This document shows positions 16,223 through 30,484 of a DNA stretch of 64,000 nt, piece after piece. Within the stretch, counting starts at the first letter, position 1, and each line of letters begins with the position of its first letter. Under the pieces are notes generated by a model. That model was not told the origin of the DNA and did no database searches. It worked only from the letters and a program-made list of their open reading frames with translations. The position numbers and the translations under genes were made by a program. The stretch spans positions 1-64,000 of IMG/VR virus record IMGVR_UViG_3300025723_000026. One strand, 5' to 3'. This stretch comes from a virus (lineage: Duplodnaviria > Caudoviricetes).

Positions 16223-17194
16223 TTAGAATAAATCGTCTTCAGAAAAACTTTGCGACTTCTTTGAATAATTTACTGGTCTGGAATGAAAAAAATCTGTTAA
16301 GTTGTTGCCATGTAACTCCTCGTTGAACCAGTTCGAAGCTTTTAACAGCTCTTTATCAACTTCAAATGGTCTATGAAAGCCAATACCCTCTAACGACTCA
16401 TTAATCCTGTTCTTAATAAACTCCTTAAGAAGAGGGGCATTTAGATTTTCTTCATTAATATCGTTTAACATCCAATCAACAATTTTTGCTTCAGCTTTAA
16501 ATGCTTCGTGAGCTTCATGAAGAATCTTATCTTCAAGCTCTTTATCGAAGAGCTCAGGATACTCTTCTCTGATTGTATTGATAATCTTCGTACCAACAAG
16601 ACCATGAATGTTCTCCTCATTGCGTGTATACTTTACTTGTTGATCGGTATCCTTGAGAACGTTCTTAAAACGTGCAAACCAATTGATAACGTAGAACTGA
16701 CTGAAGAGTGATACGTTCTCAATAAGAAGAGTAAAGAGAGCAATAGCATAGAGATACTGCTTCTTAGAATCCTTAAAACAACGCTTTGTATATTTCTTAA
16801 GATACTTTACTCGGCCTTGAATCCAAGGAAGTTCTAAGTTCTTTTCAAAGATATCCTCTAAACCAAGCACGGAAAGAAGACGCTCGTAAGCATTGTTATG
16901 AATAACTTCTGTATTAGCCATAACATATCCAAGATCATAGATAGAGGGATGTGGGAGATTATCACCTAAACGTGCCCAGAATGTCTTAACTGATACTTCA
17001 ATCTGACCAATAGCTGAAAGAACTCTAATTACAGCCTCTCTCTCCTGATCGGTTAAATTAACTTTAAATTGTTGAATATCGGACTTAAAGCTGAATTCCT
17101 TATCTGTCCAGAAGCCATTGTGCATTGCCTCCACGAATTCTTCTGTCCATTTATAGTTGTTTGGTTTGCGGCTAATTTGTTCGTCAAAGATCAT
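16223..17194 (-). CDS. nrdB: Ribonucleotide reductase class I beta subunit (class Id/NrdBi-like)
   Basis: QIEVSVKTFW, TEVIH, IENVSLFSQF, EENIH ligand motifs. Confidence 0.93.
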   Translation of the reverse strand: MIFDEQISRKPNNYKWTEEFVEAMHNGFWTDKEFSFKSDIQQFKVNLTDQEREAVIRVLSAIGQIEVSVKTFWARLGDNLPHPSIYDLGYVMANTEVIHNNAYERLLSVLGLEDIFEKNLELPWIQGRVKYLKKYTKRCFKDSKKQYLYAIALFTLLIENVSLFSQFYVINWFARFKNVLKDTDQQVKYTRNEENIHGLVGTKIINTIREEYPELFDKELEDKILHEAHEAFKAEAKIVDWMLNDINEENLNAPLLKEFIKNRINESLEGIGFHRPFEVDKELLKASNWFNEELHGNNLTDFFHSRPVNYSKKSQSFSEDDLF

Positions 17195-18703: not shown

Positions 18704-19294
18704 CTAATTTTTAAATTCTTTTAAAAAGATCTCCCAATCAGTAATATTATGCTTATTACGAATATAGAAGGTTGATGGAAGCTCTCTCGGAATTATAGGC
18801 TGCCGTACAAGCTTTAGTCCAGCCTCTTCAGGTGTACGTGATCCTTTCTTTGAATTGACTTCCTTGTGACAGAGAACGCAATTCGTCCAATCAGTCTTAC
18901 CACCTCGGGTACGAGGAATGACATGATCGATATTGGCTTCAGATTTTGAAAGCTTCTTATTAGTATATTGACAGGTGCCGTTATCTCGAGTCCAGATATT
19001 ACTATGGGTAAACTTCGGACGTTTCATTGGTACCTTATCATACTCACAGAGAACAATAACAGTAGGAATCTTAATGCTACCACGAGTTGTTTTAATATAC
19101 GAGGCCTTTTCATCAAAAGGCAAATTAACCCAATCCGACCATTTGAGTGGTACCATCATATCATATCCTCGAATATCTAAAGCTGTTGCTGTATTCTGAT
19201 ACATCATGACAAAAGCATCAGCTGGAGATTTTGTATGAATGGCTTGCCAGTTTCTATTAAGAACTAGCACTGTCTCCTGTTTAAGGTACGACAT
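18704..19294 (-). CDS. HNH endonuclease (McrA-like)
   Basis: VLVLNRNW, IWTRDNGTCQY, NIDHVIPRTRGG, NCVLCHKEVN; start moved to MSYLK because the longer ORF overlaps tRNA-Val. Confidence 0.85.
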   Translation of the reverse strand: MSYLKQETVLVLNRNWQAIHTKSPADAFVMMYQNTATALDIRGYDMMVPLKWSDWVNLPFDEKASYIKTTRGSIKIPTVIVLCEYDKVPMKRPKFTHSNIWTRDNGTCQYTNKKLSKSEANIDHVIPRTRGGKTDWTNCVLCHKEVNSKKGSRTPEEAGLKLVRQPIIPRELPSTFYIRNKHNITDWEIFLKEFKN

Positions 19295-19325
19295 ATATGT
19301 ATATTTAATTAATTGTAAAGAAAGA

Positions 19326-19401
19326 TGGTACACCAGAAGGGATTCGAACCCCTGACATTCTGCGTGTAAGGCAGACGCTACTACCACTGAGCTACTGGTG
19401 C
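19326..19401 (-). tRNA. tRNA-Val(UAC)
   Basis: Cloverleaf, loop CT-TAC-AC, CCA. Confidence 0.92.
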
Positions 19402-19943: not shown

Positions 19944-20017
19944 TGGAGCGGGTAGAGAGAATTGAACTCTCGCATCAAGTTTGGTAAACTCGCAGGCTAC
20001 CATTACATCATACCCGC
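19944..20017 (-). tRNA. tRNA-Gly(ACC), rare A34 anticodon
   Basis: GCGGGTA/TACCCGC, U73, CCA; stem CGAGT/ACTTG, loop TT-ACC-AA. Confidence 0.9.
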
Positions 20018-20381: not shown

Positions 20382-21032
20382 TTAAGTCTTATATTTACAA
20401 TTATTGAAATGAAACCGTGCCATAGTATTTTTAGCGCCTTCCTTTAAGCAATAAGGGCATTTAATTTTTTGTCGCTTAAGACCTCTATTACGCCGCCCGC
20501 CAAACGACGGTGACTCTTTGTTTCGCTGTAAAAGTGATTGGCGTATTTTTTCTTTATGCTCTTCAGTTTTATTACCTGATGCAGCTTTTCGTGCATGTTC
20601 ACGCTGCAATTCAGGGTTTTTTCTAGCAAAATTATTTGCTATCATTTTTTTTCTCGTTTCGTCACTTGCTTTGCGATTAGTGGCTTTTAAACGTAAAATA
20701 GCCTTTGTTTCATCAGTATGTCGTTTATTTTGAAACGTTAAATTATTTTTTTCTTTTGATCCGTAACCGCCACCGGGCATTAAATTGTAAGTATCAGATC
20801 GTAGACAAAAATCAGCATCAACAATTTCTGCTTCTCTATAAAGCATCTCTTCTTTGGAGTCAAAATATTCTAATATTTCTTTTGTAAAGCACGCCTTACC
20901 ATATTTGTTAATATCTCTTATAAGAGCTTTACCTGAGCCAAAATAATAATCGTTAATATCGCGGGACTGATGTACACCTATATAAAACTTATTATTAATG
21001 TTATTTGTAATTTTATACAAGTAATATATCAT
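20382..21032 (-). CDS. GIY-YIG homing endonuclease (Seg-like)
   Basis: YYLYKITNNINNKFYIGVH, YFGSG, YNLMPGGG, NUMOD3-like KRHTDETK. Confidence 0.88.
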   Translation of the reverse strand: MIYYLYKITNNINNKFYIGVHQSRDINDYYFGSGKALIRDINKYGKACFTKEILEYFDSKEEMLYREAEIVDADFCLRSDTYNLMPGGGYGSKEKNNLTFQNKRHTDETKAILRLKATNRKASDETRKKMIANNFARKNPELQREHARKAASGNKTEEHKEKIRQSLLQRNKESPSFGGRRNRGLKRQKIKCPYCLKEGAKNTMARFHFNNCKYKT

Positions 21033-21076
21033 ATAATAATATTTATGTAAAGGTAGCACATTAATCAATTAAAGAC

Positions 21077-21156: not shown

Positions 21157-21234
21157 TGGAGCGTCAGGTAGGATTTGCACCTACGGCTTTAGGGTTTTGC
21201 AGACCCTTCCTTTGGGCTTCTCAGGCACTGACGC
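21157..21234 (-). tRNA. tRNA-Cys(GCA)
   Basis: Loop CT-GCA-AA, U73, T-loop TGCAAAT. Confidence 0.88.
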
Positions 21235-21523: not shown

Positions 21524-21613
21524 TGGAGGAAGCTGAGGGATTCGAACCCTCGGAGGCGATAAAGCCTCGGTTGTTTAGTAAACAACTCTCTTAAACCGCT
21601 TGAGTAAGCTTCC
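21524..21613 (-). tRNA. tRNA-Ser(ACU), rare A34 anticodon
   Basis: GGAAGCT/AGCTTCC, long variable arm, stem GTTGT/ACAAC, loop TT-ACT-AA, CCA. Confidence 0.88.
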
Positions 21614-21698: not shown

Positions 21699-21773
21699 TG
21701 GTCAGGAGGCTGGGATTTGCACCCAAACCGATTCTTTCACAGAGAATAATGCTACTATTACACCACAACCTGA
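21699..21773 (-). tRNA. tRNA-His(GUG), with U-1:A73 and acceptor mismatches
   Basis: Stem ATTCT/AGAAT, loop CT-GTG-AA, CCA. Confidence 0.78.
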
Positions 21774-21944: not shown

Positions 21945-22020
21945 TGGTGGCAGGAGCGGGAATCGAACCCGCAATCTTTGCGTTATGAGCGCAACGACTT
22001 AACCGTTTGTCCATCCTGCG
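21945..22020 (-). tRNA. tRNA-Met(CAU), initiator-like
   Basis: C1xC72 mismatch, loop CT-CAT-AA; anticodon stem GCG/CGC rather than GGG/CCC. Confidence 0.82.
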
Positions 22021-22750: not shown

Positions 22751-22833
22751 TGGAGCCAGTGGAGGGACTCGAACCCCCGTTGTTTGTATACCGCTTTACA
22801 AAAGCGGTGCTGTCGCCGCTGAGCCACACTGGC
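22751..22833 (-). tRNA. tRNA-Thr(UGU) with 12-nt variable region
   Basis: Loop TT-TGT-AA; variable region TATACAAACAAC. Confidence 0.88.
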
Positions 22834-24150: not shown

Positions 24151-24225
24151 TGGTGCGACAGGTCAGAGTTGAACTGACTTCCTTCCCGTTATGAGCAGGC
24201 CGCTCGACCGTTGAGCTTCTATCGC
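24151..24225 (-). tRNA. tRNA(CAU), elongator Met or Ile2
   Basis: Loop CT-CAT-AA, paired 1:72, CCA. Confidence 0.82.
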
Positions 24226-24369: not shown

Positions 24370-24540
24370 TTAAGGTAGCTGCTCCTCAGGAGGATTCAAA
24401 AGATCCTTAATCTCAGCGTTAATGCGCTTGATCTCATCGCCAAAAGCTTTAGCTGTAGACTTCTTACGTAACTTAGTTTCTTCGAGTTCTTGAACGAGTT
24501 GGTATACCTGGGCTTCTCTGGATGGTTTTGGGTTTGACAT
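24370..24540 (-). CDS. Small coiled-coil protein (56 aa)
   Basis: MSNPKPSREAQVYQLVQELEETKLRKK...; TTGCTT-N16-TATAAT 8 nt upstream. Confidence 0.6.
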   Translation of the reverse strand: MSNPKPSREAQVYQLVQELEETKLRKKSTAKAFGDEIKRINAEIKDLLNPPEEQLP

Positions 24541-24589: not shown

Positions 24590-24681
24590 TGGTACTCCTG
24601 CCCGGTTCTGCCCCGGGATCGCGCCCTCATCTAGGACTTCTGGTGTATAAGACCAGTGTTTTACTGTTAAACTACAGGAGC
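24590..24681 (-). tRNA. tRNA with UAU anticodon (Ile), long variable arm and GGCAGAA T-loop
   Basis: GCTCCTG/CAGGAGT-A-CCA; stem CTGGT/ACCAG, loop CT-TAT-AC; 22-nt variable region. Confidence 0.8.
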
Positions 24682-24682
24682 A

Positions 24683-25486
24683 TTATGTATCTATAATAGA
24701 TTCTGAACTCGAATCATCAAGCTTTTTTCTCTGAATATTTGTATAAAGCTGTTTTAATTTACTAATAAATTCTTTAAAATACTTTTGATAGGCTGGATTG
24801 GACTTATTACGATAGAGTGTATTAATGAATCCGTTATAGTCAGATAGAAATTGTGGTACAACAACTTCAGAAATCTTTGTAGAGTTAATGAGGTTTGCTA
24901 TTGACTTGAGAAGAAGCATACGTCTGCTCTTCCAAAAGGTTCTTCCTGAACCTGATTTACTACGACGATAGAGTTCTTTTTGCTGAAGATCAATTTCGTG
25001 CAAGATTGCAGCTATCTGAACAGGGAACTCATTTTGTGCTGTATAATAATCTCTCTTACTACCTACCTTATTGCCAGCTGTTGCTTTGAGATAGGCTTCT
25101 GTTGGTTTTTTATAATTCTTAGCATGAAAAAGCTCATGCACTATCTTATTACGTTTTGTATTATTCGGTAGAGCACTATACTTTTGATAGTTTAATGAGA
25201 TAGTATCTGTTTTTCTATCATAGTCAGCATCACCAAGACTCTCGTCAAAATTGACAGATACATATGCTTTACTTTCTTTACGTTTTACCTCATCATAGTA
25301 CTTTATTGACCCCAAGATCATTGTACCGTCTTGCTGTAATCTCTTTGCATACAATTCCTTAGGATCATTATTTCCTATCACTGTAGGATTAAAGAACTTT
25401 AAGTATGTATTATATACAAGACTAACCTGTCTCTCTTCTTCATCTGAGAGAGTACTCTCTACTATAAAGGATTTAAAGGGAAGCAT
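24683..25486 (-). CDS. Putative zinc metallopeptidase-like protein (HExxH)
   Basis: KIVHELFHAK; N-terminus MLPFKSFIVES. Confidence 0.55.
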   Translation of the reverse strand: MLPFKSFIVESTLSDEEERQVSLVYNTYLKFFNPTVIGNNDPKELYAKRLQQDGTMILGSIKYYDEVKRKESKAYVSVNFDESLGDADYDRKTDTISLNYQKYSALPNNTKRNKIVHELFHAKNYKKPTEAYLKATAGNKVGSKRDYYTAQNEFPVQIAAILHEIDLQQKELYRRSKSGSGRTFWKSRRMLLLKSIANLINSTKISEVVVPQFLSDYNGFINTLYRNKSNPAYQKYFKEFISKLKQLYTNIQRKKLDDSSSESIIDT

Positions 25487-29383: not shown

Positions 29384-30484
29384 TTATGCTTCAAGATTCG
29401 CTGGTTCAACATTACGGAATGGATCCGGTGCTACTGCAGCAAAATCAGGTCCTTTAAAGAACATCTCTGAAGCAAGACGATTGAGCTCCATACGGAATGC
29501 AATATTCTCATCAGATTGAATATGATGGGTTGCAACATTGGTTAGGTTATTGAACAGGTCATACGCATTAACGTTTGAGTTAGCGGTTGACTGCCAACGG
29601 GTACCTTTCTTCGCTGTATCAATTCCAAGAGTCTTATAACGACCCTTGATCTCGTTATCGTTAAACATTGTTACAGCAAGCTCCTTATCTAAATCCATAA
29701 CAAGCTTACGAGCGTTATAGTACTCACGGAGAGAGGCGTTATTGTTACGAAGACGATTAGCGCTAGCTGAAACTTCCTGACGGAGAGCATCTCCAGTCAA
29801 GAACTTACGAACTTGCGTATCGAAGGTACGCTGACTGAAGTCTGCGCTATCAATAAAGCGCTGAGCCATACGATGAACAGCAGTCATTCCGTTAGAGCAG
29901 ACCAAGCGAAGGAGATAGGGGAAGAACTGCGACTTATTCATCGAGAAGTTCATACCAAAACCACCCTTCCACATATCCTTACCATCACCGAAGACATCGA
30001 TATCAGAATCAGGGTTCTTAAAATTAATGTTGATACAAATATTTGTAGGATCGAAATCAAAATTTCGAAGCTCAAGATTGGTATCATTATCGCGCAGATA
30101 AGCCTCTGTATAACGGAGACCGGCAGTAAGGTCAATTGCCTTCTCCTCCTTAATCGGACGATCGAAGATATTAACAATCTCGTTGTTGCTACTGTCCTGA
30201 ATAGCTGTAACACGCTTATTCTGACGGATGTTAGTGAGTGCATTATGGAGCGGGGCCCACTGAGCGTTATCATCTTTAATCTCGTTAACGAGCTTATCCT
30301 TAACACCAAGAACACCAAGCAGACTGCTCAATGACTTAGTACCAAGGCGATTATTATTATAAGAGAACGTATTACCGCTCTTCTCAATGTTTTCAATATC
30401 CAGAGGGACAAGGCTGTAGCCCTGAAGTGTCTGGCGGATTTCTGCGCTTTTAGCGACGAACTGATCTAGTGTTGTTGTACTCAT
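29384..30484 (-). CDS. DUF932-like protein
   Basis: LLRLVCSNGM motif; C-terminal YDLFNNLTNVATH. Confidence 0.6.
   Translation of the reverse strand: MSTTTLDQFVAKSAEIRQTLQGYSLVPLDIENIEKSGNTFSYNNNRLGTKSLSSLLGVLGVKDKLVNEIKDDNAQWAPLHNALTNIRQNKRVTAIQDSSNNEIVNIFDRPIKEEKAIDLTAGLRYTEAYLRDNDTNLELRNFDFDPTNICININFKNPDSDIDVFGDGKDMWKGGFGMNFSMNKSQFFPYLLRLVCSNGMTAVHRMAQRFIDSADFSQRTFDTQVRKFLTGDALRQEVSASANRLRNNNASLREYYNARKLVMDLDKELAVTMFNDNEIKGRYKTLGIDTAKKGTRWQSTANSNVNAYDLFNNLTNVATHHIQSDENIAFRMELNRLASEMFFKGPDFAAVAPDPFRNVEPANLEA

Follow-up and report, generated by a model that had tools for sequence, protein, structure and literature searches.

The locus and its genomic setting

The window analysed here is a stretch of 64,000 nucleotides, positions 1 to 64,000 of the IMG/VR virus record IMGVR_UViG_3300025723_000026, which is 76.3 kb long, about 35% complete according to CheckV, and about 37% G+C. 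The record carries T4-like tail-fibre and baseplate genes as well as class I ribonucleotide reductase genes, and close relatives of its NrdA are found on phage contigs of about 200–226 kb. The 21 tRNAs called by ARAGORN are all encoded on the minus strand and lie between 17.8 and 29.3 kb. Rfam adds two, a tRNA(CAU) and a tRNA(UAU); the final 12 kb of the record yielded no further tRNA. A search of the 76 kb record, and thus of about 35% of a complete genome, returned neither TilS nor IleRS.

The tRNA(UAU) gene lies at 24590–24681 on the minus strand, as placed by its sequence, by the Rfam model RF00005, and by a minimum free energy cloverleaf. It is 92 nt long with an encoded CCA (24590–24592), next to the discriminator A73 at 24593. 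The acceptor stem, GCUCCUG/CAGGAGU, opens with a G1.U72 pair. The D-arm reads GUUU-AACAGUA-AAAC, and its loop (24662–24668, minus strand) lacks the GG dinucleotide, with A18 in place of G18 and G19 kept. The anticodon arm, CUGGU-CUUAUAC-ACCAG, has its loop at 24645–24651 and the UAU anticodon at 24647–24649, also on the minus strand. The variable region of 22 nt holds an extra arm (24623–24637, minus strand) with the stem GUCCU/AGGGC and the loop AGAUG, followed by a 3' tail, GCGAU (24618–24622, minus strand), whose last U is a candidate partner of A15 in a Levitt pair 15–48. If the extra arm is instead read as a 4-bp stem with a 7-nt loop, the loop is UAGAUGA and displays GAU at 24629–24631. 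The T-arm is CCCGG-GGCAGAA-CCGGG; in its loop (24606–24612, minus strand), G54 G55 C56 A57 G58 A59 A60 replaces UUCGAAU, while C56 and the G53–C61 pair are kept. All of the structural details that the sequence-only reading had given for this gene (92 nt, G1.U72, A73, the CUUAUAC loop, the 22-nt arm region, no GG in the D-loop, and GGCAGAA) proved correct.

The minimum free energy fold is exactly a five-arm cloverleaf (−30.8 kcal/mol, z = −2.15), with a 7-bp acceptor stem and a 5-bp T-stem, both of which covary among homologues. The tRNA-finder check proposed in the sequence-only reading gave a divided answer. RF00005 matches 24593–24681 on the minus strand over model positions 1–71 of 71 with 47.0 bits (E = 1.4e-7, 13 kb searched), well above its gathering cut-off of 29 bits, but ARAGORN makes no call at 24590–24681. 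ARAGORN also skips two sister copies with the GGCAGAA T-loop and calls the homologues with a normal T-loop as tRNA-Ile(tat), so its failure here is due to the altered elbow. The gene is thus overlooked by standard tRNA finders, and phage tRNA repertoires and analyses of codon supply are undercounted.

Two ORFs on the same strand flank the gene. Upstream, an ORF of 267 aa with no family match (24683–25486, minus strand) ends with a stop codon about 1–2 nt before position 1 of the tRNA. Since the stop codon abuts the tRNA and the neighbours are co-oriented, the tRNA is probably processed from a longer transcript; promoter-like matches near the gene were not enriched (6 found, 6.6 expected in shuffled sequence). 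Downstream lies a small ORF of 56 aa (24370–24540, minus strand). A second phage locus, L210, carries a homologue of the 267-aa ORF that is 72% identical, with a long-arm tRNA(UAU) about 0.9 kb downstream of it, and there the homologue of the 56-aa ORF sits directly upstream of the tRNA (translations compared by eye).

A family of long-arm tRNA(UAU)

A scan of IMG/VR with the anticodon arm returned two long-arm homologues among class I tRNA(UAU) genes, and a scan with the D-arm plus the UAU loop returned 69 loci. When one metagenome locus and the window tRNA were added to these 69 loci, 42 distinct full sequences resulted, and these form the family set used below. The long-arm tRNA(UAU) family is large and widespread, and its members occur in phages and in some bacteria. 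The CUUAUAC loop is found in 42/42 sequences, as the search pattern required, and likewise in L210, a locus reached through a protein search. When the explicit cloverleaf is laid on the 42-sequence alignment, 97.2% of cells are paired, compared with 73% after shuffling and 34–57% when the structure is slid along the alignment. Both partners vary in 21 of the 25 pairs, and the four pairs of the extra-arm stem are all among these; the other four pairs, all in the D-stem, do not show this, because the search pattern fixed the D-stem. The tRNA(UAU) gene is therefore real and its structure is under selection.

The extra arm was left free by the search pattern, so its motif is an independent observation, though the sequences are related. 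The arm loops fall into the types CAGAUUA (21), UAGAUGA (9, including the window), UAGAUUG (4), and YAGAUAA (3), with a consensus yAGAUkr in which the G and A are invariant; GAU is present in 39/42 sequences and GAC in 3/42. The discriminator is A73 in all 42. In the tail, column 77 of the alignment is T throughout (42/42), and columns 74–75 are GA in 40/42. The window tRNA shows the whole set of family features: CUUAUAC with UAU, A73, a covarying arm with yAGAUkr, and the 3' GAU tail. In the same DNA, AGAU occurs in the variable region of 38/40 long-arm UAU tRNAs, compared with 3/39 Ser, 0/36 Leu, and 0/14 Tyr tRNAs. Judged from these comparisons, the AGAU loop motif is specific to the family, which sets the extra arm apart from class II arms in general. 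The three sequences with GAC, from the IMG/VR loci L008, L013, and L045, thus show a valine anticodon in place of GAU, in an arm loop of 6 nt; in L013 the arm is poorly paired.

At pair 1:72, the family has G.U in 23/42 sequences and A–U in 12/42. Within the tRNA cluster of the phage (17.8–24.7 kb), G1.U72 is also present in tRNA-Leu(UAG), tRNA-Leu(UAA), tRNA-Val(UAC), and tRNA-Arg(UCU), making at least five tRNAs with the UAU tRNA, and is therefore not special to the latter. A 14-mer T-arm pattern was too unspecific, as it returned at least 114 loci and just two of them, the window and L066, were genuine. Searches of phage GenBank entries with the locus and the upstream ORF (megablast, tblastn) gave no match, and the sole blastn match, to a crAss-like phage, was rejected as generic similarity to a tRNA-Thr. 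A full-text search of the literature found no account of a 7/5 tRNA(UAU) with such a long arm.

Meaning of ATA codons in the phage

Nearly all bacteria read AUA only after an essential lysidine modification, and AUA is the sole sense codon treated in this way. In the phage, ATA is the second most used isoleucine codon, with 383 occurrences (20.7 per thousand, 28% of ATH codons). Its use is uneven, since it makes up about 37% of isoleucine codons in the structural block at 42.8–63.6 kb and about 23% elsewhere; in some structural genes the share is 44–69%, with 69% reached in one of them. At the other extreme, NrdB (16223–17194, minus strand) and an ORF of 366 aa (29384–30484, minus strand) have no ATA at all (0/23 and 0/19 isoleucine codons), and the choice of ATA splits strongly between gene classes. 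The phage thus uses ATA heavily, especially in its structural genes, and would bring its own decoder.

The sequence-only reading had left two options, a TilS-independent AUA decoder or a tRNA charged with leucine or serine that recodes AUA. The second supposes that LeuRS or SerRS, which do not inspect the anticodon, charge the tRNA, so that AUA is recoded or decoded ambiguously, and the long variable arm speaks for it. The alignment of ATA positions against homologues, which that reading had itself put forward as a check, bears directly on this choice. Window proteins were compared with ten related phage loci (51–73% identity) in codon-level alignments. In the 818 aligned ATA cells, the partner codons were mostly ATT (20%), ATA (18%), GTT (10%), and GTA (9%), and the residues were I (41%), V (22%), L (9%), and T (8%), with serine below all of these. 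For comparison, ATT sites gave I 51%, V 17%, and L 9%, and ATC sites gave I 58%, V 18%, and L 10%, whereas in the same alignments leucine codons faced leucine at 60–63% and serine codons faced serine at 43–52%. A similar picture was obtained for NrdA, which was compared with 150 diverse representatives at 39–69% identity (mostly 40–62%) and offers only five ATA sites: isoleucine is the top or joint-top residue at four of the five, for instance 118/140 at residue 79, and serine is essentially absent. NrdB, examined for the same purpose, had no ATA codon to contribute.

The profile at ATA sites, in the phage loci and in NrdA alike, is that of isoleucine, with no more leucine than at ATT sites; ATA therefore stands for isoleucine, and as read from these alignments the phage does not recode AUA. 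Recoding would moreover mistranslate 383 codons and would affect hundreds of conserved isoleucine sites in the structural proteins of the phage. What the codon comparison establishes is the meaning of ATA rather than the cargo of tRNA(UAU), because a host tRNA-Ile2 could also read ATA as isoleucine.

Descent and synthetase identity elements

A scan of a genome collection found long-arm members in an Allomesorhizobium, in three Pyrinomonadales (Acidobacteria; two of them Pyrinomonadaceae), in an Arcobacter, in a member of the Flavobacteriales, and in an archaeal assembly assigned to the Methanobacteriota, along with a truncated long-arm copy in Pleionea. Three Candidatus Harrisonbacteria genomes carry instead a class I tRNA(UAU) with an identical D-arm and anticodon loop and a 4-nt variable loop. 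TilS was matched in all three of the long-arm-carrying genomes that were checked, whereas a TilS search of two Harrisonbacteria genomes gave no match, and the class I tRNA(UAU) is presumably the AUA decoder of these bacteria. The existence of a class I relative with the same D-arm and anticodon loop argues that the family consists of tRNA-Ile(UAU) to which an arm has been added, and not of a converted leucine or serine tRNA; by its sequence, the long-arm family looks like a descendant of class I tRNA-Ile(UAU).

TilS-independent tRNA-Ile(UAU) of class I is known from Mycoplasma mobile, as its tRNA-Ile2 (PMC3575796). Other cases are a suppressor of tilS deletion in Bacillus subtilis (PMC3919564) and, as cited in PMC9976931 (its references 44 and 45), tRNAs of lactic acid bacteria. 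These tRNAs likewise have UAU reading AUA without lysidine, and A73. They differ in that their variable loop is short and their elbow normal, where the phage tRNA has a 22-nt region with a GAU hairpin, and A18, G54, G55, and G58. The phage tRNA(UAU) is thus a form of the known TilS-independent tRNA-Ile(UAU) with an arm and a rewired elbow. Two other groups invite comparison. Allo-tRNAs resemble tRNA-Sec and tRNA-Ser, and their acceptor and T-stems are arranged as 8/4 or 9/3 (Mukai et al., PMC5389517). Their UAU group, described from phages, soil bacteria, and metagenomes, has the anticodon and a long variable arm in common with the phage tRNA, which by contrast is 7/5 and has A73, and C2–G71 where bacterial tRNA-Ser has G2–C71. 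Class II tRNAs (Leu, Ser, and bacterial Tyr) share the paired extra arm, and A73 with A15–U48 is also found in E. coli tRNA-Leu, whereas the phage tRNA has a class I D-arm and a conserved AGAU arm loop (found in 3/89 Leu, Ser, and Tyr tRNAs), and its anticodon and the codon evidence point to isoleucine.

The identity rules used here for isoleucine, leucine, and serine tRNAs are those of E. coli and other bacteria, taken from PMC9976931. By these rules, tRNA(UAU) carries the IleRS elements A73, A35, U36, A37, C4–G69, and U12–A23. It lacks two E. coli isoleucine determinants, with G29–C41 instead of C29–G41 and C38 instead of A38, and its position 34 is U where the rule asks for G34 or lysidine-34. 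The elements that would suit a leucine tRNA are A73 and a probable A15–U48 pair, formed with the invariant U before the T-stem, to which can be added an acceptor stem identical, except at pair 5:68, to that of tRNA-Leu(UAG) from the same phage. The elbow that LeuRS of E. coli needs, G18G19 with the pairs G18:U55 and U54:A58, is replaced by A18, G55, G54, and G58. This requirement is not absolute, given that one tRNA-Leu(UAA) among the phage tRNAs surveyed carries A18:G55. For SerRS, which looks for G1–C72, G2–C71, and G73 in addition to a long arm, only the arm is present; the tRNA has G1.U72, C2–G71, and A73 instead, and C2–G71 is an antideterminant against SerRS in E. coli tRNA-Leu (PMC9976931). 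The D-arm is also of class I type, with a 4-bp stem and a 7-nt loop, unlike those of the leucine and serine tRNAs of the phage.

The long arm, the two LeuRS elements, and the leucine-like acceptor stem thus have to be set against the replaced LeuRS elbow, the SerRS elements that are absent, the class I D-arm, the class I relative in bacteria in which TilS was not matched, and a codon profile with no excess of leucine and almost no serine. Together with the finding that the AGAU arm is not generic to class II, these points make recoding or ambiguous decoding by a Leu- or Ser-charged tRNA very unlikely, and the option of a TilS-independent AUA decoder gains support from the Harrisonbacteria match and from the isoleucine-like ATA sites. 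We infer that tRNA(UAU) is charged with isoleucine by the IleRS of the host.

A rewired elbow

The D-loop and the T-loop of the window tRNA depart from the family in concert. Among the 42 family sequences, the D-loop is AACGGUA in 38, AACGGUUA in one, and AACAGUA in three; 39/42 combine a GG in the D-loop with a UUC T-loop, and the other three combine AACAGUA with GGCAGAA. A metagenome scan with the A18 D-arm, in which the T-loop was left unconstrained, returned only GGCAGAA sequences. The GGCAGAA sub-lineage consists of three distinct sequences, namely the window tRNA, one shared by L066, L198, and L200, and that of L199. They differ from each other by compensatory changes at pairs 6:67, 29:41, and 30:40, and are 93.5–96.7% identical, whereas identity is no higher than 74% in the flanks, where these can be aligned at all, and 35–84% in the neighbouring proteins. 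L210, the phage with the closest upstream ORF, has a long-arm tRNA(UAU) with a normal elbow in the equivalent neighbourhood, and the elbow of the window tRNA is therefore derived.

The change follows a rule that holds well beyond this family. In 597 distinct phage tRNAs called by ARAGORN, a pyrimidine at position 55 (580 U, 2 C) goes with a GG in the D-loop in 582/584 cases, and G55 goes with AG without GG in 11/11. The A18:G55 pattern recurs in a structure-based scan that covered about 2 Mb of phage DNA, in which the G54...G58 combination is confined to the sub-lineage of the window. A18 and G55 thus covary across phage tRNAs, and the window tRNA conforms, with G55, a D-loop AG without GG, and C56 kept. 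The other A18:G55 phage tRNAs likewise combine G18 to A with U55 to G and retain G19–C56; they keep U54:A58 or swap it to A54:U58, whereas the window sub-lineage has G54 with G58. In the sub-lineage, A18:G55 takes the place of G18:U55 and G54/G58 that of U54:A58, with G19–C56 kept. A full-text search of the literature found no description of A18:G55. Two other tRNAs of the window, tRNA-Cys (21157–21234, minus strand) and tRNA-His (21699–21772, minus strand), share the A18:G55 elbow: they have the T-loop UGCAAAU, and thus G55, no GG in the D-loop, and U54 and A58 kept.

The covariation of A18 with G55 and the retention of G19–C56 and G53–C61 indicate that this elbow is a coherent alternative design and not decay. 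That the gene might be a decaying pseudogene copy of a family tRNA is suggested by the departure of G18 and of five of the seven T-loop positions from the family consensus. The same apparent defects are nevertheless fixed in three distinct sequences from different phages, whose tRNAs have remained 93–97% identical, with compensatory stem changes, while the flanks diverged. The A18–G55 combination is systematic, and the gene is the sole UAU tRNA in the 76 kb record. Decay is thus extremely unlikely.

A different proposal is that the gene encodes a tRNA-shaped RNA with no role in decoding. Such an RNA could be regulatory, or it could act as a decoy or sponge that occupies a host nuclease or modifying enzyme directed at tRNAs. 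This would explain the abnormal T-loop, which lacks U54, U55, and A58 and causes ARAGORN to reject the gene, and a conserved structure alone is no proof of decoding. Defence nucleases directed at the T-loop do exist: one is CbCash, a CRISPR-associated Schlafen nuclease that cleaves tRNAs at the UUC of the T-loop and no longer does so once either U54 or U55 is changed (PMC13462974). On the other hand, the anticodon loop, A73, the encoded CCA, the 7/5 stems, G19–C56, and G53–C61 are all retained. A close homologue with a normal elbow occupies the equivalent locus in L210, the A18:G55 elbow spans many isotypes and fits working tRNAs, and the high use of ATA constitutes a plain need for a decoder. 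We regard a non-decoding role as improbable.

As an explanation of the elbow itself, a block on mischarging by LeuRS was considered, since exactly G18:U55 and U54:A58 are removed. This idea is weakened because a phage tRNA-Leu(UAA) carries A18:G55 and because many isotypes share this elbow. U54 and U55 are also the sites at which m5U54 and pseudouridine-55 are formed. Our hypothesis is that the rewired elbow may let tRNA(UAU) escape enzymes directed at the T-loop or nucleases cutting at UUC; the CbCash study leaves open whether phage tRNAs are among its targets (PMC13462974). This elbow is relevant to two wider questions: how many features of the "universal" tRNA corner are required, and whether phages reshape their tRNAs to evade host defences that target tRNAs.

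The extra arm as a possible handle for IleRS

With these alternatives weighed, we consider it probable that the gene encodes a functional phage tRNA, one that reads AUA as isoleucine with no need for lysidine, and hence none for TilS, and that belongs to a family which gained an arm and, in this sub-lineage, had its elbow coherently rewired. What is new here is that a single gene joins a long arm to a rewired elbow, together with the G54/G58 variant, the Harrisonbacteria relative of class I, and a small comparison of IleRS enzymes.

E. coli IleRS charges a UAU anticodon inefficiently, a defect that is cured when the W905 site (W890 in Staphylococcus aureus) holds Arg or Lys, and on E. coli ribosomes a UAU anticodon that lacks modification can misread AUG (PMC3575796). 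M. mobile has an adapted IleRS, with Arg at the W905 site, whereas Trp is kept in the chromosomal IleRS of the three long-arm bacteria checked, two Pyrinomonadaceae and the Allomesorhizobium (mapped on 1FFY for one Pyrinomonadaceae enzyme, and read by eye from the C-terminal motif for the other two). The IleRS of the Harrisonbacteria, which have the plain class I form, differs in having a DUF5915 C-terminus and no zinc finger. In five genomes from three lineages, the IleRS types would thus fit a compensation by the arm. The Harrisonbacteria enzymes from L228 and L229, which have this C-terminus, also have a histidine-phosphatase domain (PF00300) inserted within the catalytic domain.

The scenario would be as follows. 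A hairpin was gained between the anticodon arm and the T-arm, and its 7-nt loop displays GAU, the standard isoleucine anticodon. The extra arm would then act as a second "anticodon" stem-loop that offers GAU to an IleRS of the Trp type, so that a UAU tRNA, otherwise a poor substrate, receives isoleucine. The ordinary tRNA-Ile(GAU) of the phage (21861–21935, minus strand) has the anticodon loop UUGAUAA, which matches the arm loop UAGAUGA at 5/7 positions, the mismatches falling at the equivalents of positions 33 and 37. Strict mimicry of GAU is weakened by the GAC found in 3/42 family sequences, by these differences at the U33 and A37 equivalents, and by an arm shorter than an anticodon arm; judged by our estimate of tRNA geometry, the loop of this arm is also unable to occupy the place of an anticodon. 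From the loop sequences, a contribution of the GAU arm to charging by IleRS is a possibility to be entertained, on the unlikely side. The combined proposal, in which the GAU arm serves as an IleRS handle and the elbow was rewired to drop a U54–U55 nuclease site, for example that of Cash, is rather doubtful. If the handle proposal were true, a plain UAU with a GAU hairpin would be a new way round the charging problem, which Mycoplasma overcame through mutation of its IleRS, and a rare natural case of an identity element located on an extra arm.

Other features of the tRNA region

The second tRNA added by Rfam, tRNA(CAU) at 24154–24225 (minus strand), scores 50.5 bits with RF00005 and is skipped by ARAGORN despite a normal elbow. 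Having G1–C72, it is not an initiator and would be either an elongator tRNA-Met or an Ile2 of the lysidine type; a typing search for Met versus Ile2 gave no match. If it were Ile2, the phage would have two AUA decoders. Another CAU tRNA, called as tRNA-Met (21945–22020, minus strand), has a C1xC72 mismatch that resembles an initiator, without the three G–C pairs in the anticodon stem.

A34 is unusual outside tRNA-Arg(ACG), and in the window it is carried by tRNA-Gly(ACC) (19944–20017, minus strand) and tRNA-Ser(ACU) (21524–21613, minus strand). The tRNA-Thr(UGU) at 22751–22833 (minus strand) is 83 nt long, with an unpaired variable loop of 12 nt (UAUACAAACAAC). Genes for HNH and SegE-like GIY-YIG endonucleases lie among the tRNA genes, at 18704–19387 and 20382–21068 (both minus strand). 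Gene order around the UAU tRNA differs between the window phage and L210, and the two observations suggest that homing endonucleases shuffle the tRNA region. Outside this region, a gene of the sulfotransferase family (PF13469; 10089–10907, plus strand) adjoins large structural genes.
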